Below, one piece after another: positions 1 through 9,691 of a stretch of DNA of 10,000 nucleotides. Numbering within the stretch: position 1 is the stretch's first letter; every line of letters begins with the position of its first letter. A program made the position numbers and the translations under genes. Source of the DNA: Mytilus trossulus. Its lineage: Eukaryota. The notes beneath the pieces were generated by a model. That model was not told the DNA's origin. It saw only the letters and a program-made list of their open reading frames with translations, and did not search any database. Location: NCBI RefSeq assembly GCF_036588685.1, contig NC_086380.1, positions 33,520,313-33,530,312 of the forward strand, in the 5' to 3' direction.

Positions 1-2302
1 TGAGGGTACTTTCTCTAAAAATGAGGGTACTTTTTATATGGCCTTCCAAATACCGTTTCGATCCCTAACATCACTGAAGAGACATTTATTGTCGAAATCA
101 GGATATGGTGTACTAAAGAAATATTGACACCGAATGTTTGTGGCACAACATACTGTCCACAAGTTAACAATTTTTTTTTCTGTGACGTATTAAATTTATA
201 TTAGGATCCATTTTGTTACATCTTGTGATCAATTTTATTTGGCAATCGTCAATGGCAGTCAGCAGGGTTAAAGAACATCAGTTGTTCGACCTGTTAGTCA
301 AATGCGTTTTGTTTAAATATACTTTTTCACTCTTTTGGTCTTTTGGAAAATGTTGTTTGTGCTGTTTTTAGACCCTTTTACAACGAAATTTGTTTTACAT
401 GCACACGTATAAAAACTGCGGTTTTTATCCAACGCAGTCATAGGTTTGAACGTAGTTTTCAATTTAGACTCGTTTATATTTTTTGTTTGGGCATGTATCA
501 TATTTTCCCTCTGGTTTATATGATCCGTTCATCCTATATATTGACTCTTAAAATTCAAGAGTTAATCTAAAAATGAGGGTACTTTCTCTAAAAATGAGGG
601 TACTTTTTATATGGCCTTCCAAATACCGTTTCGATCCCTAACATCACTGAAGAGACATTTATTGTCGAAATCAGGATATGGTGTACTAAAGAAATATTGA
701 CACCGAATGTTTGTGGCACAACATACTGTCCACAAGTTAACAATTTTTTTTTCTGTGACGTATTAAATTTATATTAGGATCCATTTTGTTACATCTTGTG
801 ATCAATTTTATTTGGCAATCGTCAATGGCAGTCAGCAGGGTTAAAGAACATCAGTTGTTCGACCTGTTAGTCAAATGCGTTTTGTTTAAATATACTTTTT
901 CACTCTTTTGGTCTTTTGGAAAATGTTGTTTGTGCTGTTTTTAGACCCTTTTACAACGAAATTTGTTTTACATGCACACGTATAAAAACTGCGGTTTTTA
1001 TCCAACGCAGTCATAGGTTTGAACGTAGTTTTCAATTTAGACTCGTTTATATTTTTTGTTTGGGCATGTATCATATTTTCCCTCCGGTTTATATGATCCG
1101 TTCATCCTATTGACTCTTAAAATTCAAGAGTTAATCTAAAAATGAGGGTACTTTCTCTAAAAATGAGGGTACTTTTTATATGGCCTTCCAAATACCGTTT
1201 CGATCCCTAACATCACTGAAGAGTCATTTATTGTCGAAATCAGGATATGGTGTACTAAAAAAATATTGACACCGAATGTTTGTGGCACAACATACTGTCC
1301 ACAAGTTAACAATTTTTTTTTCTGTGACGTATTAAATTTATATTAGGATCCATTTTGTTACATCTTGTGATCAATTTTATTTGGCAATCGTCAATGGCAG
1401 TCAGCAGGGTTAAAGAACATCAGTTGTTCGACCTGTTAGTCAAATGCGTTTTGTTTAAATATACTTTTTCACTCTTTTGGTCTTTTGGAAAATGTTGTTT
1501 GTGCTGTTTTTAGACCCTTTTACAACGAAATTTGTTTTACATGCACACGTATAAAAACTGCGGTTTTTATCCAACGCAGTCATAGGTTTGAACGTAGTTT
1601 TCAATTTAGACTCGTTTATATTTTTTGTTTGGGCATGTATCATATTTTCCCTCTGGTTTATATGATCCGTTCATCCTATATATTGACTCTTAAAATTCAA
1701 GAGTTAATCTAAAAATGAGGGTACTTTCTCTAAAAATGAGGGTACTTTTTATATGGCCTTCCAAATACCGTTTCGATCCCTAACATCACTGAAGAGACAT
1801 TTATTGTCGAAATCAGGATATGGTGTACTAAAGAAATATTGACACCGAATGTTTGTGGCACAACATACTGTCCACAAGTTAACAATTTTTTTTTCTGTGA
1901 CGTATTAAATTTATATTAGGATCCATTTTGTTACATCTTGTGATCAATTTTATTTGGCAATCGTCAATGGCAGTCAGCAGGGTTAAAGAACATCAGTTGT
2001 TCGACCTGTTAGTCAAATGCGTTTTGTTTAAATATACTTTTTCACTCTTTTGGTCTTTTGGAAAATGTTGTTTGTGCTGTTTTTAGACCCTTTTACAACG
2101 AAATTTGTTTTACATGCACACGTATAAAAACTGCGGTTTTTATCCAACGCAGTCATAGGTTTGAAAGTAGTTTTCAATTTAGACTCGTTTATATTTTTTG
2201 TTTGGGCATGTATCATATTTTCCCTCCGGTTTATATGATCCGTTCATCCTATTGACTCTTAAAATTCAAGAGTTAATCTAAAAATGAGGGTACTTTCTCT
2301 AA
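1..2302. repeat. Tandem satellite array 1: four monomers (573, 569, 573, 569 bp, an A/B dimeric higher-order pattern) plus the first 23 bp of a fifth monomer
   Basis: Direct sequence identity. The unit boundary motif 'aaaaatgagggtactttctct' recurs at 569, 1138, 1711 and 2280. The ORF-track copies at 313/886/1455/2028 give periods 573, 569, 573. B-type units differ from A-type by CTCTGG->CTCCGG and a 4-bp ATAT deletion (cctatatattgac -> cctattgac). Confidence 0.95.
569..610. repeat. 21-bp internal tandem duplication at the monomer boundary (aaaaatgagggtactttctct + aaaaatgagggtactttttat), repeated in every monomer
   Basis: Seen directly. Two adjacent 21-mers are 18/21 identical. The same pair occurs at 1138-1179, 1711-1752 and 4159-4200. 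Confidence 0.85.
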
Positions 2303-2325
2303 TCAAAGTGATGGATATCACTCAT

Positions 2326-2351
2326 GGAAAGATTAGAACAGTAGTTTAAAT
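2326..2351. repeat. Left TIR-like end of the insertion: GGAAAGATTAGAACAGTAGTTTAAAT
   Basis: Reverse complement of 3582-3606 is GGAAAGATAAGAACTTGTTCTAAAT. About 19/25 positions match, including the identical leading GGAAAGAT and AGAAC. The left copy lies 23 bp inside the junction (2303-2325 = tcaaagtgatggatatcactcat, itself a small hairpin agtgat/atcact). Confidence 0.45.
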
Positions 2352-2420
2352 TATTTCATATTAAGGTATGTTGGGGGAAAATGAACATTTATAGAGCACT
2401 ATTGCTGAAAATTGCATTTA

Positions 2421-2626
2421 CAGAGGGGGGAAAGGACCTTTATCAGGACTCCGGGAGCGAGTGTTTTTTAAGCTCGGGATTTTGGGATTAACCCTTTCGG
2501 AATCCGGGAATCCTTTTTTTCTGATTTCGGGACGTCGGGATTTACTTTATTTAAATTCGGGACCTCAGGATTTCTTTTTTTTAAGTCCGGGATTTCGGGA
2601 CCAGGACCCCTACTATCCCCCCTCTT
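2421..2626. repeat. GC-richer ~200-bp module: ~30-bp minisatellite (about 5 copies, consensus roughly tTCGGGAynTCGGGATTT + T-run + aag) bracketed by a perfect 9-bp inverted repeat AGAGGGGGG / CCCCCCTCT
   Basis: Seen directly. TCGGGA(T/C) or TCCGGGA pairs at ~2449, 2473, 2497, 2526, 2556 and 2585, each followed by a T-run. Inverted repeat arms at 2423-2430... more precisely 2422-2430 and 2617-2625. MITE-like, but no target-site duplication identified. Confidence 0.6.
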
Positions 2627-3581
2627 AACAGCAGGTTTTTAGAAGGAAATAATGCTTTTCCATTGAGAGGATAAAATGAGCTCAAATTAAATAATATGAA
2701 TCTCTAAATTTTCACAATTTTATTTAAACTGCAGTTTATATCTAATCTAAATTAATATGTTGCCAGTTCAGAACATGTTTTAAAAAATCAAAAAAATGCA
2801 AAATCCGTCTAGTAAATGTTATAAACTATCCTTGTAAGACAAAAAAATAGACCAACAGCTAAAAGCTTTAAAGTGGCAACAAATATAATCTAAAAATGTT
2901 GTTTTGGGGCATTTTGTAAGTTGAAACAGAGGTTATATGGCATTGAAAATACTTGAATACCTTTTATATATTCATATTTATATTCATATTTCATTTTTTT
3001 TAAATCTTGTTACTCCATTAATCATTTAAATATAATCTTTCAGATATAATTTACAGAATCACTGTATGTAATGTAGATCAAAAGTAATTGGCAATAAATA
3101 AATCTATAATCCTTATGAATATCAAACATCTAATATACACATTTGTGTATTCAATTATGAGGTCAAATACTTGTGTATTAAGAATTATATCATATTTTGT
3201 GTGGTCTGTATAATTATGTAAGACTGAGGTTGATAGGTAATGTGGTCAATTTGATTGGCAGTTTAGGAGGTGGGGCATTGTAATTAAAGGTCCACCTTGT
3301 CTCTGATTGATTAGTGATAATGACAGTGGTCAATCATACTAGTGGAATCAATACCCATTTACCTAATCAAAATGTTTTTAAAAAAGCCTGCACATCAACA
3401 CACCTTAATTACATACAATCTTGAATGAACTGCTCCAATAATATACCCAGTTTTTTTTCAGTTTATTTGTGTAGTATGTGCATATTCATGAGAACAATAG
3501 GGAACTATATTTTAGTGTGAATACATTTAGTAACAGTAGCTAACCTGTCCTGTTGTTAGGGAGGGTGGTGCCTAAGTAAAG

Positions 3582-3606
3582 ATTTAGAACAAGTTCTTAT
3601 CTTTCC
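3582..3606. repeat. Right TIR-like end of the insertion (inverted partner of 2326-2351), abutting the resumption of the satellite at 3607
   Basis: See the partner feature. It ends exactly where the satellite sequence aaaaatgagggttctttttatatgg resumes. Confidence 0.45.
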
Positions 3607-5205
3607 AAAAATGAGGGTTCTTTTTATATGGCCTTCCAAATACCGTTTCGATCCCTAACATCACTGAAGAGTCATTTATTGTCGAAATCAGGATATGGTG
3701 TACTAAAAAAATATTGACACCGAATGTTTGTGGCACAACATACTGTCCACAAGTTAACAATTTTTTTTTCTGTGACGTATTAAATTTATATTAGGATCCA
3801 TTTTGTTACATCTTGTGATCAATTTTATTTGGCAATCGTCAATGGCAGTCAGCAGGGTTAAAGAACATCAGTTGTTCGACCTGTTAGTCAAATGCGTTTT
3901 GTTTAAATATACTTTTTCACTCTTTTGGTCTTTTGGAAAATGTTGTTTGTGCTGTTTTTAGACCCTTTTACAACGAAATTTGTTTTACATGCACACGTAT
4001 AAAAACTGCGGTTTTTATCCAACGCAGTCATAGGTTTGAACGTAGTTTTCAATTTAGACTCGTTTATATTTTTTGTTTGGGCATGTATCATATTTTCCCT
4101 CCGGTTTATATGGTCCGTTCATCCTATATATTGACTCTTAAAATTCAAGAGTTAATCTAAAAATGAGGGTACTTTCTCTAAAAATGAGGGTACTTTTTAT
4201 ATGGCCTTCCAAATACCGTTTCGATCCCTAACATCACTGAAGAGACATTTATTGTCGAAATCAGGATATGGTGTACTAAAGAAATATTGACACCGAATGT
4301 TTGTGGCACAACATACTGTCCACAAGTTAACAATTTTTTTTTCTGTGACGTATTAAATTTATATTAGGATCCATTTTGTTACATCTTGTGATCAATTTTA
4401 TTTGGCAATCGTCAATGGCAGTCAGCAGGGTTAAAGAACATCAGTTGTTCGACCTGTTAGTCAAATGCGTTTTGTTTAAATATACTTTTTCACTCTTTTG
4501 GTCTTTTGGAAAATGTTGTTTGTGCTGTTTTTAGACCCTTTTACAACGAAATTTGTTTTACATGCACACGTATAAAAACTGCGGTTTTTATCCAACGCAG
4601 TCATAGGTTTGAACGTAGTTTTCAATTTAGACTCGTTTATATTTTTTGTTTGGGCATGTATCATATTTTCCCTCCGGTTTATATGATCCGTTCATCCTAT
4701 ATATTGACTCTTAAAATTCAAGAGTTTAAAAATGAGGGTACTTTCTCTAAAAATGAGGGTACTTTTTATATGGCCTTCCAAATACCGTTTCGATCCCTAA
4801 CATCACTGAAGAGTCATTTATTGTCGAAATCAGGATATGGTGTACTAAAGAAATATTGACACCGAATGTTTGTGGCACAACATACTGTCCACAAGTTAAC
4901 AATTTTTTTTTCTGTGACGTATTAAATTTATATTAGGATCCATTTTGTTACATCTTGTGATCAATTTTATTTGGCAATCGTCAATGGCAGTCAGCAGGGT
5001 TAAAGAACATCAGTTGTTCGACCTGTTAGTCAAATGCGTTTTGTTTAAATATACTTTTTCACTCTTTTGGTCTTTTGGAAAATGTTGTTTGTGCTGTTTT
5101 TAGACCCTTTTACAACGAAATTTGTTTTACATGCACACGTATAAAAACTGCGGTTTTTATCCAACGCAGTCATAGGTTTGAACGTAGTTTTCAATTTAGA
5201 CTCGT
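3607..5205. repeat. Tandem satellite array 2: same monomer family. Two near-complete units (552 and 569 bp) plus a 478-bp truncated third unit
   Basis: Unit starts at 4159 and 4728. The first unit begins at the second 21-bp sub-repeat (monomer position 22). The unit 2/3 junction lacks 4 bp (gagttaatctaaaaatg -> gagtttaaaaatg). The array ends inside ...tttagactcgt at 5205. Confidence 0.95.
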
Positions 5206-5216
5206 ATATATATATA
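5206..5216. repeat. (AT)n microsatellite at the right edge of the satellite array
   Basis: atatatatata directly follows the truncated monomer. Confidence 0.8.
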
Positions 5217-5342
5217 CAACTCGTCTAAACATCAACCCAACAATGTTGTAGGGTTGTCACTGACTCAGGGGCCAATGATGGTGATACATGGCTGTGTACA
5301 TAATGTATATACAACTCGTATAAACATCAACCCAACAATGTT
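5211..5342. repeat. Pair of 37-bp direct repeats (tatatacaactcgt[c/a]taaacatcaacccaacaatgtt) at 5211-5247 and 5306-5342, 95 bp apart, 36/37 identical
   Basis: Seen directly. They flank a 58-bp unique spacer (gtagggttgtcactgactcaggggccaatgatggtgatacatggctgtgtacataatg). Confidence 0.85.
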
Positions 5343-5436: not shown

Positions 5437-5451
5437 AATATATATATATAT
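5437..5451. repeat. (AT)n microsatellite followed by (GT)3, immediately outside the left inverted-repeat copy
   Basis: atatatatatatat then gtgtgt. The right inverted-repeat copy is flanked by a related ggtgtatat string at 9312-9325 on the opposite strand. Confidence 0.75.
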
Positions 5452-5455
5452 GTGT

Positions 5456-5521
5456 GTTACAGTAAATAGGTGAAATTCGGAATTACATGTAATTAATAAA
5501 ATTTCGGAATTACCTGTAATT
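5456..5521 (-). repeat. Left copy of an ~66-68-bp inverted repeat pair (partner 9244-9311). Contains the perfect 14-bp palindrome AATTACATGTAATT and a dense set of GTAATT/AATTAC motifs
   Basis: The reverse complement of 9244-9311 aligns at about 56/68 (~82%). The first 40 bp are 36/40 identical (gttacagtaaata[g/c]gtgaaatt[c/a]ggaat...gtaatta) and the last 11 bp are 11/11 (tacctgtaatt). Confidence 0.75.
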
Positions 5522-6954
5522 CCCGATACACTTAGCAAATACAAGTAATTCCTGAATCTGTCTAGTTATAACCAGTAATTACTAGTTTTTAAATGATTTT
5601 TTTAAAGGTGATAAAACAATGTTATAATATGGCAAGCTGATGAAAAATAAGGATAAAACAGTGAACATTATCAAAAAGTGATCAACCTAAAATGTACCTT
5701 TTTGTTATATTAAAGGGTATTAGGCACTGTTAGCTATATAATGCAAAAAAATACATTATATGTTTTGTTGTTGTTCAATCAAATTATAATTCGATTTTTT
5801 TAAGATAAGTTTGGGTCATTTTTTTTTTCTCAAAATAAGCTAAGAAACATGGCTGATGAGTTATTCACTTGCAAATGAATAATTCAACCTCAATGTAACC
5901 GTTAAGCTGGAGCTGGGTTACACATGTATTCAGCTATTAAAAAGGATAGAATGACAAAATTGAAAGTAAAACAAAAGGGATGCACCATTTGGTTTACTGG
6001 GTCGATCCACAATAAGCTCATTCACATACATGTAAAGGTAAATACGACATTCGTTTGATGTGTTTGAGCTTTTGATGGTGCTATTTGATTAGGACTTATA
6101 GTTATAAATTGACTATGAGGGTCGGTTGAAATACAGATTTACGACAAGAGATGATTTCAGCATCCCAATTGTGACTTTTCCTTTTTTGTTTTTCAAATGG
6201 TGAAGTTGAAATCATCACTTCTTAAATTTTACGGACGCCATCACGAGTTGGCTGACCGTTATGGAATATCCGTTTCACATATGACACTGGATATGTTGCT
6301 TATGTCGTAGCTATAATCCATTTCTCTTTTCACGAAAGTGGGACAACCGAATTAGACTATGTACCGGCCCTGTAATAACACGAGTATTACGACGAGTGCC
6401 ATATGTGGAGCAGGATCTGTTTTCCCTTACGGAGCACCTTAGATCCCCCCCAGATTTTGGTTGGATTCGTGTTGCTTTTTCTTTACTTTTTCATGTTGTG
6501 TCTTGCAAGTCTTAACCTTTTTTCAGCCATGGTGTTGTCAGTTTATTTACGATCTATGAGTTTAGACTTGGAACAGGCACCTGCGTTATGTGCTGTGGTA
6601 AACCAGTTTTGCCGAATACACACACGCCATTTTTCCCACTCAATAATTTATATGTGTGATTAATGATGTAAAACCAATACAGCACTGAACATATTGTAAA
6701 ATTCCACCCTAAAGCACCAAACCTACCTAGAAATAATGATGTTCATGTGTGTCTGTCTGTTTGCAAGTCAGGACTAGTTTCTTCATAAGGATTGGTGGTT
6801 TCGATTTGTTATGCGACACTATCAATATGTCAATAGCCGCAGAACATCGAGTAAACATGTACATGTATTTTAATTCTTAATGGGTAATCATTTTTGCTAC
6901 AAAAAAGGTGTTGATAACTGCTATATGACATGTGCAGTACAATTTTTGTACAGG

Positions 6955-6978
6955 TATATGTGAGCCAAAATTTGTTCC
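6955..6978 (+). repeat. Left terminal inverted repeat of the 1.23-kb element
   Basis: See the element feature. Confidence 0.7.
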
Positions 6979-7030
6979 TGTGAAAAAAGTTCCAGTGGAA
7001 CTAATATGTTCTGGGAGAACTTTTTTCACA
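6979..7030. repeat. Hairpin with perfect 14-bp arms (tgtgaaaaaagttc ... gaacttttttcaca) and a 24-nt loop containing its own small palindrome gttccagtggaac, immediately inside the left TIR
   Basis: Seen directly. Arms at 6979-6992 and 7017-7030 are exact reverse complements. Confidence 0.85.
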
Positions 7031-7080
7031 GACAATTTCTATATAATTTGTTCCATCTATATGAAATAAGTTCCACACTT

Positions 7081-7244
7081 TACCTGGTGAAATAAGTTAT
7101 GGGTTGGTGAAATTTGTTCCTTACCTAGTGAAATAAGTTCCATGTTTGTGAGATTTGTTCCTTACCTGGTGAAATAAGTTCTGGATTTGTGAGATTTGTT
7201 CCTCATCTGGTGAAATAAGTACCTTGTCTATGAAATTTGTTCCG
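7081..7244 (+). repeat. Subterminal tandem repeat: 4 copies at an exact 41-bp period (tacctggtgaaataagttNNNNgtttgtga[a/g]atttgttcct)
   Basis: Units at 7081, 7122, 7163 and 7204. Each holds one GTGAAATAAGTTCC-type half and one GTGAnATTTGTTCC-type half. Degenerate copies continue outward to ~7046. Inverted copies of the same motifs fill 7999-8182. Confidence 0.85.
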
Positions 7245-7760
7245 CTGGTTAAACAAGTTATGTTACATACTGAGCACTTGTCATCAGTGAGTTTAAAGTC
7301 ATTATAAAAAACATGTTTTATAATTGATAAGGTAATAAATAAAAAGTGTAAACATCAAATTTGGATCATGTGGAGTAAAGCAAAAGTTAATAACATTATT
7401 CTCAATAAATAATACTAAAAATGACACTTATGAACCAGGAAAGAGTAGAATAAATAATAATAAAAGTCATTCCGAAAAAAAGAATTATAATAGTTAAAGA
7501 TGAATATTTGTACTTTTTCAAAATGGACAAAGTGACTGATCAATTATATTTCAAGACATAGAAAAACAAAAGACACTCTCTTTAAAAACTGTGAAATGAC
7601 AATAGCTAAGTACATGTATGATTAGAACACCCATAACAGATCAACAGGAAATTAAAGGAGGTGGAATACCACTTCAATGATAAAATAGATACAAATTATG
7701 AAACATTATGATTCTCATCGCTTTTATTTCTTATCTTCATCCTAAAGTCATGCCTTTAAT

Positions 7761-7828
7761 CAATCTCCCATGCAGAGTTCTCGGTCCTTGAGAGAGAGCA
7801 AGGACCGAGAACTTTGCATGGGAGATTG
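7761..7828. repeat. 68-bp near-perfect palindrome (30-bp arms, 29/30 complementary, 8-bp AG spacer agagagag), flanked by the 9-bp direct repeat GCCTTTAAT at 7752-7760 and 7829-7837
   Basis: Left arm caatctcccatgcagagttctcggtccttg. Right arm caaggaccgagaactttgcatgggagattg. One mismatch (C/T). The identical 9-mers abut both arm ends. Confidence 0.9.
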
Positions 7829-7998
7829 GCCTTTAATTGCAAATGTACCCCATGCAAGCACAGTACTTATTTCCTGTGAAACAGGTTTCATCAGAACATT
7901 TTCATTGATTTCTATAAAATACCTTCTTTCAAAACTAATATCACACAAACTTAATTCACTTTTTTTAAATTTTAATATTGGAACAAAACTCATACATT

Positions 7999-8182
7999 GT
8001 CATAGTGCTGTGATTTTTGTTCCGGAACTTATTTCACACTTGGTTAGAAAATTAGTTCTGGAACAAATTTTATAGTGCTGGAACATATTTTCTGTGACAT
8101 AAGTTCCGCTGGAACATATTTCCTATGAAATTTGTTCCAGAGGAACAAATGTCACGCCGGAACAAATTTTTTGTTACATATA
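7999..8182 (-). repeat. Right subterminal arm: inverted copies of the GTGAAATAAGTTCC / GTGAAATTTGTTCC motifs with repeated GTTCC-N(0-3)-GGAAC palindromes (gttccggaac, gttctggaac, gttccgctggaac, gttccagaggaac)
   Basis: Seen directly. ggaacttatttcac is the reverse complement of gtgaaataagttcc. The same palindromic motif class occurs in the left arm (gttccagtggaac 6990-7002, gttctgggagaac 7009-7021). Confidence 0.8.
8159..8182 (-). repeat. Right terminal inverted repeat of the 1.23-kb element
   Basis: See the element feature. Confidence 0.7.
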
Positions 8183-8881
8183 CAGGCTTAAGTTTGGAGG
8201 TCTTTAGAAAGTCATATAAAAGAGACACTTAAAGCCATCATTTTGTATAATTTTATTTATGAAGAATGTCACCTTCAAGTTGCTTATTCTTTAGTTTTCT
8301 ATGTCATGTGTCATTGGTTCTATTGTTTGTCTATTTGTCTTCTTTCATATTTAGCCAGGCGTTGTAAGTTTATGTTCAATTTATAAATTTGACTGTCCCT
8401 CTGGTATCTTTCGTCCCTATTTCAATGCAAATTCTAACAACAGAAGTCTTAGTTTAAAATAATTTGTCTGATGAATTAAATTATTTCATATGTCAAGTTA
8501 GTCTGATTGATATGCAAAGTATGCTTATTAATAGAGATTTTAATGTTTCCTGATGAATAATCATTATCTTTCAACCATATATGGCATAATAGAATGTCTA
8601 TCATCAAAAAGAACGAACGAGAATTCTCACAAATGTATTTCTCATATATTGATTATATGATTGTCTTGCATGTTGAAAACGATTTTTAGCGAGTTTCAAA
8701 AATTATAAAGCAACCATTTCCCTATTTCAATTCACAAACAAATTTATAAAACATACAGTCTTTGATTCCTTTACATATACGTAATCTCTACAATCCCTAC
8801 CCCGTTACTTTATTATTTGGTATATTGATGTATGTCTCAATTTTAATACAAATTAAAATATCAAGTTTGTGAATAGCTGTA

Positions 8882-9243: not shown

Positions 9244-9311
9244 AATTACAGGTATTTACTGAATTGTGTAGTAATTACGTGTCATTCCTAATTTCACGTA
9301 TTTACTGTAAC
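9244..9311 (+). repeat. Right copy of the inverted repeat pair. The two copies bracket ~3.86 kb (5456-9311)
   Basis: See the partner feature. Either TIRs of a ~3.9-kb composite element, or two inverted copies of a short dispersed repeat. Confidence 0.75.
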
Positions 9312-9691
9312 ATATACACCTGTGAATCTGCAGTCACAACTCTAAGGAACTAATTACCTAAAAATCTGACACCTATAATTTCATTGTGTAATTTAAAAGA
9401 ATCAAGCTGTATTAAAGAAATGTGGTACACAAATGTTTCTTGTAAACCATTTAAAAGGAGTAGGTCCGGTAAGGACCGATTTTGGCCTCAAATTTTAGTT
9501 TCATCTGATGAAAGATTTTGACCACTTTTTAAACACTTAAGTTTCTATTTCAATGGTTTCGATTAATTTATGTGAAAGATTTAAACTTATTTCGTCATTA
9601 AAAACGATCCGATTCAAGCTCAAATACGGAAAATCTACTAAATATGCGGAAAAATGTCACTTTTCACATGGTTTTTGTCCAAAACGAAATT

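Follow-up and report, generated by a model that had tools for sequence, protein, structure and literature searches.

A mussel tandem repeat with a hammerhead motif in each unit: a likely long-unit retrozyme array split by a Helentron-type insertion

We analysed a 10,000-nt stretch of the genome of the mussel Mytilus trossulus (assembly GCF_036588685.1, contig NC_086380.1, positions 33,520,313 to 33,530,312 of the forward strand; this whole stretch is called the window hereafter), the left half of which holds a tandem repeat with units of 573 or 569 bp. We consider it likely, without regarding the matter as settled, that the region is one array of a new family of animal retrozymes lacking long terminal repeats (LTRs), characterized by long units, and that it was later split by a Helentron-associated interspersed element (HINE). 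A preliminary description made from the sequence of the window had left open whether the repeat was a satellite or part of a larger repeat family. It is indeed a non-coding tandem repeat, but not an anonymous satellite, since each unit bears a hammerhead ribozyme motif and copies of the family found elsewhere show a fixed 3′ end, 5′ truncation, and (TA)n tracts at their junctions.

The tandem array and the element that splits it

Seven copies of a 16-nt anchor, GGCCTTCCAAATACCG, start at positions 40, 613, 1182, 1755, 3630, 4203, and 4772, with spacings of 573, 569, 573, 1875, 573, and 569 bp, and a repeat search retrieved seven in-register copies at 99–100% identity (~99.5% from unit to unit). 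These anchors, together with the unit alignment, confirm the 573/569-bp satellite-like repeat initially described in the window. The units are called here u1 to u4 to the left of the wide spacing and a1 to a3 to its right. At least 6.8 units are present in the window; the array continues past its left edge, and on the right its homology stops at 5205–5211, inside a (TA)6 tract. The array comprises the following features:

1–2302, plus strand: left part of the tandem array, entered in mid-unit, with units at 40–612 (573 bp), 613–1181 (569 bp), and 1182–1754 (573 bp), and a further one at 1755–2302 cut by the insertion
3609–5211, plus strand: right part of the tandem array; 3609–3629 completes the cut unit and is followed by 3630–4202 (573 bp), 4203–4771 (569 bp, with an AATC deletion), and a last unit running from 4772 to the usual 3′ end of the family
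566–606, plus strand: 21-bp tandem duplication (TCTAAAAATGAGGGTACTTTC twice), present at each unit junction, with further copies at 1135, 1708, and 4156

The monomer has a GC content of 33% and only short, spurious open reading frames (ORFs), which match nothing but other copies of the repeat. An Rfam scan of the window gave no RNA family above threshold, and no diverged remnants of the monomer were found elsewhere in the window. ARAGORN found no tRNA in the repeat; a tRNA-derived short interspersed element, considered on account of A- and B-box look-alikes at ~250–295, was accordingly discarded. The monomer (40–612) has a ratio of observed to expected CpG of 0.96, compared with 0.66 for the 4.8 kb that flank it and 0.37 for the insert described below; given its high ratio, the repeat is either young or has been spared methylation-driven decay.

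The unit does not exist only at this locus. Relatives were found in contigs L001, L003, and L005 to L009, and eight family fragments in these marine metagenome contigs were examined for insertion marks. L001, a Tara Oceans contig reached through a spurious ORF of the monomer, is 90% identical and tandem, with a 545-bp period and a single copy of the 21-mer. L003, a contig from a JGI metagenome reached through a 21-nt pattern, is 97.5% identical and has the 573-bp period and the 21-bp duplication; its two units are identical to each other and differ from those of the window at 8 fixed positions. A minus-strand ORF gave 16 matches in the representative library, from which five contigs, all belonging to the ENA assembly ERZ6864376, were analysed: L005 and L006 contain L001-type arrays, L008 carries 1.3 units that are 75–78% identical, and L007 and L009 hold solo fragments of ~145 nt. 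Tandem copies are therefore also known from L001, L003, L005, L006, and L008. The 21-bp duplication, absent from L001, L005, and L006, explains most of the difference between the 573 bp of the window units and the 545 bp of these relatives. Another contig, L002, was rejected as a relative, being a chance match to the 21-mer only. Two patterns gave no match in viral and prokaryotic genome collections, searching public assemblies for exact matches to window ORFs retrieved none, and k-mers of the sequence met with chance matches only in the literature searched. The satellitome papers on C. gigas and Limnoperna fortunei contain no k-mer of the monomer in their supplements. Two similarities point to a mussel-like host. 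Other interspersed repeats of the window recur in the ERZ6864376 contigs at 74–86% identity, and L005 carries at 2247–2290 (minus strand), in the same contig as an array of the present family, the exact published hammerhead of the Mytilus galloprovincialis retrozyme, around which it is 84% identical to a published M. galloprovincialis clone over 222 nt. In L009, an ORF with a match to the RCC1-repeat Pfam family (4854–5147) lies 3 kb from the solo copy; copies can thus sit near genes.

The wide spacing between u4 and a1 corresponds to an insertion. The left part of the array stops at ...CTTTCTCTAA (2302) and the right part resumes at AAAAATGAGGG (3607); the five intact unit junctions, which serve as empty sites, read CTTTCTCTAAAAATGAGGG, that is, CTTTCTCTAA|AAATGAGGG. 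The break falls at a single monomer position, T|T within a T-run on the minus strand, with two surplus A (T on the minus strand) and without target duplication. Subtracting the 1306 bp of the insert from the spacing of 1875 leaves 569, and excision of 2303–3608 rebuilds an exact 569-bp unit, the length of u2. Because the break is in the same phase on both sides, the repair to 569 bp is exact, and the parity of the unit variants (see below) is continuous across the gap, the two apparent arrays are one array cut by a 1.3-kb transposon insertion. The variants common to both had been attributed to unequal exchange or conversion between registers; in place of two arrays that trade variants there is this single, interrupted one. 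The insert has the following parts:

2303–3608, minus strand: Helentron-type non-autonomous element (HINE-like), in the A/T-run of a unit junction; the two extra A at 3607–3608 may belong to either side
3593–3606, minus strand: 5′ subterminal inverted repeat (subTIR), GGAAAGATAAGAAC on the minus strand, 2 nt from the 5′ end; with an adjoining complementary inverted repeat it forms a predicted hairpin at ~3576–3606
2326–2339, minus strand: 3′ subTIR, complementary to 3593–3606 at 13 of 14 positions
2307–2322, minus strand: 3′ palindrome AGTGAT-ATCC-ATCACT (DNA fold), 3 nt after the 3′ subTIR and 4 nt from the end of the element
2526–2600, unstranded: internal tandem repeat of 30 bp, 2.5 copies, within the inverted-repeat segment bounded by G-runs at 2422–2625

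None of 50,000 shuffles equalled the inverted match between GGAAAGATTAGAAC (2326–2339) and GTTCTTATCTTTCC (3593–3606). On the minus strand the insert begins with TT followed by the 5′ subTIR, and its 5′ 45 nt fold at −4.9 kcal/mol. HINEs and DINE-1 elements are characterized by subTIRs, a 5′ inverted repeat, a 3′ palindrome after the subTIR, strings of T at their boundaries, TT targets, and the lack of target duplication (PMC7492417, PMC4067079), and the insert has subTIRs with the 5′ inverted repeat, the palindrome after the 3′ subTIR, and a TT/T-rich site devoid of duplication. Canonical Helitron ends at the unit boundary (CTAA|T, 2302) were also considered and dropped, as the HINE reading accounts for the junction. 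The idea that the repeat might sit in a Helitron or Helentron context was relevant, but in the reverse sense: a Helentron-type element inserted into the repeat, and there is no evidence of the repeat being carried by one. The C. gigas supplement does not contain the sequence of the subTIR, and no second copy of the insert occurs in ~35 kb of related contigs, leaving a single copy seen. A Helentron-type insertion accompanied by paralogous empty sites in the same array provides a clean worked example of the target and ends of such a transposon. Within the insert, the 200-bp segment 2422–2625 carries inverted G-runs (AGAGGGGGGAAAG and CTATCCCCCCTCT) and is full of TCGGGA-type 30-bp repeats; it could be a nested miniature inverted-repeat transposable element (MITE) or the central repeats of the insert itself.

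Few sites vary in the unit alignment, and four changes are private to single units. The diagnostic states listed in the preliminary description are all present: CTCTGG, instead of CTCCGG, in u1 and u3 only; the ATAT deletion in u2 and u4 only; the combination of CCGG with ATAT in a1; and the variants common to the right part and u3, gagTcattta (1221, 3669, and 4811) and ctaaaAaaat (1255 and 3703). The alignment accordingly shows A/T at column 43, with the T form in u3, a1, and a3, and G/A at column 79, with the A form in u3 and a1. CTGG is a CpG-to-TpG change, and CCGG with ATAT is probably the ancestral state, since it also occurs in the independent contig L003. The 569-bp unit of the right part (4203–4771) retains ATAT and owes its shortness to a separate 4-bp deletion, AATC at ~4726.

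If the numbering of units runs on without a break over the spacer, and only then, each of the four informative variants is found exclusively in odd or exclusively in even units, as happens in 144 of 5040 permutations (p = 0.029). This parity supports the continuity of the array and, weakly, a two-unit (dimeric) periodicity; u1 and u3 differ by 2 substitutions and u1 and u2 by 1 substitution and one indel, and only four variants underlie the higher-order pattern. A ~1142-bp higher-order repeat had been described here; its two-unit periodicity is modestly supported, but the 573/569 alternation of the right part stems from an unrelated deletion. With the insert removed, unit lengths alternate exactly (573, 569, 573, 569, 573, and 569), even though the 569-bp units were made by two different 4-bp deletions. 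This exact alternation over six units could be a coincidence or reflect a constraint on dimer length.

The hammerhead motif

The sequence at 68–111 reads ACATCA-CTGAAGA-GACATTTATTGTC-GAA-ATCAGGAT-A-TGGTGT and has the layout of a type I hammerhead, with cleavage predicted between positions 105 and 106. The copies in the window are:

68–111, plus strand: type I hammerhead motif; helix I ACATCA/TGGTGT (6 bp), core CTGAAGA, helix II GACA-TTTAT-TGTC (4 bp, 5-nt loop), GAA, 8-nt helix III ATCAGGAT, H17 = A
641–684, 1783–1826, and 4231–4274, plus strand: identical hammerhead copies, from the descriptor scan
1210–1253, plus strand: hammerhead with A-to-T at 1224, producing a U.U mismatch at the second pair of helix II; likewise at 3658–3701 (3672) and 4800–4843 (4814), all in odd-numbered units

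A descriptor scan detected the motif once per unit (seven in the window) and also in L001, L003, L005, and L006. The sole other match in all the sequence analysed is the known Mytilus ribozyme of L005. By chance, the descriptor matched 12 times in 2000 shuffled 10-kb windows and not once in 5000 shuffled monomers. The core (CUGANGA, GAAA, and H17) is invariant, the A15.1-U16.1 pair and the three helices of a type I hammerhead are present, and the ribozyme region includes the longest stretch conserved between the 90%-identical relatives.

A mussel ribozyme whose cleavage has been tested experimentally, GCGTCA-CTGATGA-GTCTTTTGTAGAC-GAA-ACGCGCGT-C-TGGCGT (supplement of PMC7229834), offers a direct comparison. 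Between this M. galloprovincialis ribozyme and the motif studied here there are 5 compensatory pair changes, the core positions are identical, and 96% of cells are paired, a result matched by none of 500 shuffles. Outside this region the two families cannot be aligned; their similarity, 69–71%, covers just 65–80 nt around the ribozyme. The compensatory changes support the hammerhead fold, short of proof, as they separate two lineages only and the structure was derived from the same sequences. In L001-type copies, helix III is the palindrome AUCCGGAU, and a two-molecule fold with an 8-bp intermolecular helix III reaches −26.3 kcal/mol, against −18.2 kcal/mol for two monomers. Amphibian hammerheads have been reported to cleave as dimers, and the short palindromic helix III suggests that the present ribozyme also works as a dimer.

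Ends of copies and competing explanations

Five independent 3′ ends lie at monomer position 479 ± 2: those of the window array (5205–5211), the L008 array, the L007 and L009 copies, and the left fragment of L001. They share the sequence ...TTTAGACTYGTTTATAT, the family end being ...GACTCGTTTATAT in (TA)n, with no conserved tail beyond it, as homology stops at ...ATAT(AA) in every pairwise comparison. The 5′ starts are scattered (258, ~286, 300, 339, and ~358), and the polarity of this truncation agrees with the ribozyme strand. A (TA)≥4 tract occurs within 10 nt of 6 of the 10 family junctions, compared with 1.3% of positions (binomial P about 8e-10). Two features mark the end of the array in the window:

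5071–5211, plus strand: last copy of the 3′-terminal module (monomer 339–479), with the hairpin ACTGCG-N12-CGCAGT; the same module forms the solo 5′-truncated copies of L007, L009, and the left part of L001
5205–5216, unstranded: (TA)6 tract at the 3′ end of the array, presumed target-site microsatellite

Directly after the array end, a 40-nt direct repeat (95%) occupies 5208–5247 and 5303–5342. A second (TA)n tract is found 220 bp further, at 5438–5451, so that the segment between has TA repeats on both sides. The microhomology AACTTGT at the internal junction of L001 is shared with the 3′ flank of the L007 copy.

Penelope-like elements (PLEs) and their non-autonomous partners are often truncated at the 5′ end, form partial tandems and head-to-tail insertions of several copies, target microsatellites, (TA)n among them, and carry hammerheads in their repeated part (PMC8557442). 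The copies found elsewhere behave much as a PLE-dependent retroelement would. A role of PLEs in mobilising animal retrozymes has been proposed (PMC7229834; preprint 10.64898/2026.07.22.740005), mostly on the grounds of their co-occurrence and related sequences. With its fixed 3′ end, its truncated 5′ ends, and its (TA)n targets, the family shows the insertion signature that would be expected if PLEs do mobilise retrozymes.

From published retrozymes we infer, by analogy, a comparable activity for this family, involving transcription, self-cleavage, circular RNA, and mobilisation by PLEs. The array would be transcribed and its ribozymes would cut the transcript into unit-length RNAs, which would be ligated into circles. 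A reverse transcriptase, most likely provided by a PLE, would then copy this RNA to tandem cDNA at nicked (TA)n microsatellites, with synthesis starting at a fixed site (monomer ~479) and stopping at variable points. Since such a start lies inside the unit, ~374 nt away from where the ribozyme would cut, the template would have to be circular or multimeric. For the sequence recognised by the reverse transcriptase, the conserved 3′ module (339–479) with its hairpin is the most evident candidate. Once in place, the array would have drifted slightly, its private variants and weak two-unit pattern arising by mutation and perhaps by unequal exchange. The 1.3-kb HINE then entered the T-run of one unit junction and split the array.

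A more specific and rather improbable version of this scheme attributes the periodicity to the copying of a dimer-length RNA, not to crossing-over. The helix II mismatch in every second ribozyme would restrict cleavage mainly to alternate sites, yielding 1142-nt RNAs that would be circularised; a PLE-type reverse transcriptase, primed by TA microhomology at nicked (TA)n, would copy the circle repeatedly. Three observations would be explained at once: a 3′ end fixed at 374 nt from the point of cleavage, 5′ ends that vary, and the exact 573/569 alternation. Were this so, rolling-circle reverse transcription of a ribozyme-processed circular RNA would have left a direct footprint in an animal genome at this locus.

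Several observations weigh against the retrozyme interpretation. Some concern the ribozyme itself. Rfam hammerhead models gave no match in the window at E ≤ 10, and the best match of an L001-type copy was to RAGATH-1-hammerhead (14.8 bits, E = 2.9); as a control, the Mytilus-type ribozyme in L005 scored 32.5 bits, the gathering score being 34. All seven window units have ATCAGGAT (AUCAGGAU) instead of the palindrome ATCCGGAT; for the duplex of helix III this means a predicted −4.6 kcal/mol, weaker than the −12.3 kcal/mol of the palindrome. At H17 the window units have A, as does L003, in which the palindrome ATCCGGAT is intact, whereas L001, L005, and L006 have C. Three of the seven units (u3, a1, and a3) carry the helix II mismatch, and at minimum energy the window motif is predicted to adopt a different, inactive pairing. 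Folded as a linear molecule, the unit RNA reaches −121.3 kcal/mol (z = −1.0), with 16 of 100 shuffles at least as good. Others concern the mode of insertion and the unit. The L005 array ends 3 nt past the predicted ribozyme cleavage site, an exception to the end at ~479; in L001, a 5′-truncated copy with the usual 3′ end (84–217) abuts an inverted array (217–1034) that stops at monomer 166, in a 3′-to-3′ join; no PLE gene turned up in the window or ~35 kb of related contigs, nor any ORF resembling a reverse transcriptase in the window or contigs L004 to L009; and the unit length, 573/569 bp here and 545 bp in relatives, exceeds both the 350–390 bp of the Mytilus retrozyme and the 150–450 bp of retrozymes in general. 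Considering the broken helix III palindrome, the helix II mismatches, the A at H17, and the alternative minimum-energy fold, the ribozyme of the window array may be decaying and the locus may now be an inert relic.

These weaknesses lend some weight to a less likely, though not negligible, explanation, namely an ordinary satellite that evolved by unequal crossing-over and gene conversion, with a duplicated two-unit block and a hammerhead-like motif that would be at most a dead relic. Units ~99.5% alike with 8 fixed differences from L003 form a pattern of concerted evolution, the two-unit periodicity would follow, and weakened ribozymes in the window, a dead ribozyme core in the diverged L008 copy, and a weakly structured unit RNA would all be expected. 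Such a satellite leaves unexplained why five independent copies share the same 3′ end with variable starts and (TA)n junctions, and why the ribozyme core and its pairings are kept between families alignable only near the ribozyme. The two explanations are also compatible, as a retrozyme array can later evolve as a satellite, and for the present-day behaviour of the locus a plain satellite is possible. We consider a retrozyme origin of the array the more likely.

The other alternatives fare worse. Two separate elements bounded by terminal inverted repeats (TIRs), MITEs or HINEs with internal repeats, separated by 1.25 kb of host DNA, are very improbable. In their favour, the inverted repeat at 2326–2339 and 3593–3606 could mark where one element finishes on its right and where its neighbour begins on the left, satellite-like arrays have been described inside bivalve HINEs, and a private A-to-T change at 3619 adjoins the junction. 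Such an arrangement leaves unexplained that the break has one and the same monomer phase on either side, that its repair yields exactly 569 bp, and that the odd/even pattern continues across the gap; the palindrome would moreover precede the 3′ subTIR, which it follows in HINEs, and the arrays of L005, L006, and L008 end in unrelated flanks without such TIRs. That the unit itself is a rolling-circle transposon (Helitron- or HINE-like) concatenated by read-through seems to us extremely improbable. If its start is permuted to 480, the unit opens with a T-run followed by GTTTGGGCATGTA, complementary to TACATGCACACG (396–414), it has a palindrome at 414–438, 41 nt from the end, with an adjacent inverted repeat (ATCATAT/ATATGAT), and the array ends at the predicted 3′ end. 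But no copy starts at 480, and scattered 5′ starts with fixed 3′ ends are the reverse of what a Helitron would produce, which led us to drop the permuted monomer as a HINE. The core of the inverted repeat matches at 8 of 9 positions only, with no compensating change in L001; 5′-TC, CTRR-3′, and an A|T site are lacking, the nearest hairpin is 41 nt upstream, and the flanks are (TA)n, not TT. An assembly artefact, by which the alternation or the array would come from collapsed or mis-joined reads, is scarcely credible. Short tandem arrays are error-prone and the two identical units of L003 look as in a collapsed short-read contig, with nothing more specific in its favour; the 573-bp period and the 21-bp duplication occur independently in L003, the units have private variants, and a clean transposon with intact ends lies inside the array.

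If the retrozyme reading is correct, bivalve tandem repeats annotated as "satellites" can be ribozyme-bearing retroelements, and the class would be extended to a unit of ~570 bp and to a ribozyme variant missed by curated models.

Other repeats in the window and comparison with known systems

The right half of the window contains additional repeats. An inverted repeat of ~69 nt (83%), at 5455–5521 and 9244–9312, bounds a segment of 3.86 kb and has 27-bp subterminal repeats (TTCGGAATTACNTGTAATT) in its arms. This segment looks like a DNA transposon family; next to its right arm, 9131–9246 matches the metagenome contig L004 at 80%, and no clear target duplication was found around it. A foldback-like region at 6940–8190 consists of a 41-bp tandem array (7080–7243) mirrored by inverted GGAACAAATTT-type repeats (8053–8147), with a near-perfect palindrome with 30-nt arms in its middle (7761–7828), for which Rfam gave only weak microRNA-like hairpins far below threshold. 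Copies of an interspersed repeat at 6190–6570 and 8280–8422 also occur in L004, L007, and L009 (74–85%); they contain, in three frames, peptide motifs that we take to be those of bivalve "hypothetical proteins". The translated transposon motifs of the window are presumably typical of bivalve genomes.

The insert resembles Cg_HINE and DINE-1-like elements (PMC7492417, PMC4067079) in its T string and subTIR 2 nt from the 5′ end, its nested complementary inverted repeat, the 3′ subTIR followed by a palindrome, the T|T target without duplication, and the short internal tandem repeats. Its 3′ subTIR and palindrome lie 23 and 4 nt from the end, whereas in mite HINEs these distances are 38–60 and 8–35 nt.

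Metazoan retrozymes have, besides their short units, a low GC content (<45–50%), neither LTRs nor primer-binding site (PBS) nor polypurine tract (PPT), no coding capacity, and highly self-paired circles (PMC7229834). The present repeat shares with the M. galloprovincialis retrozyme (PMC7229834) the head-to-tail arrangement of low-GC units without coding capacity, each with one type I hammerhead, and the architecture of that ribozyme is the same in both: a 6-bp helix I, a 4-bp helix II with a 5-nt loop, and an 8-nt palindromic helix III. By contrast, the rest of the unit is unrelated to the Mytilus retrozyme, Rfam is silent on the ribozyme, and the window units have a broken helix III palindrome and A at H17. 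Unlike retrozyme circles, the unit RNA showed no notable self-pairing when folded in linear form. Self-cleavage and circular RNA have been shown for the Mytilus retrozyme and are putative in the family described here.

With PLEs and their non-autonomous partners (PMC8557442; 10.64898/2026.07.22.740005) the family has in common the fixed 3′ end, the 5′ truncation, the head-to-tail multicopy insertions, the (TA)n bias, and the hammerheads in the repeated part. That bias, however, has been reported for Naiads, which lack canonical hammerheads (PMC8557442). The inverted copy adjacent to another one in L001 is also reminiscent of PLEs, but the two are joined 3′-to-3′ and not at the 5′ end. In contrast with PLEs, there is no reverse transcriptase or GIY-YIG gene here, nor an identified autonomous partner with a shared 3′ end.

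Satellite 2 of newts and salamanders, a 330-bp repeat whose hammerhead cleaves as a dimer, is likewise of type I with a very short, palindrome-capped helix III, and it was first described as satellite DNA, its hammerhead being found later. Its hosts belong to another phylum, its sequence is not related to that of the present repeat, its unit is shorter, and its abundance is much greater. Finally, the repeat resembles classical higher-order satellites in its tandem, homogenised, non-coding units and two-unit periodicity, and differs from them in the ribozyme motif of each unit, its retroelement-like ends, and its dispersed 5′-truncated solo copies.

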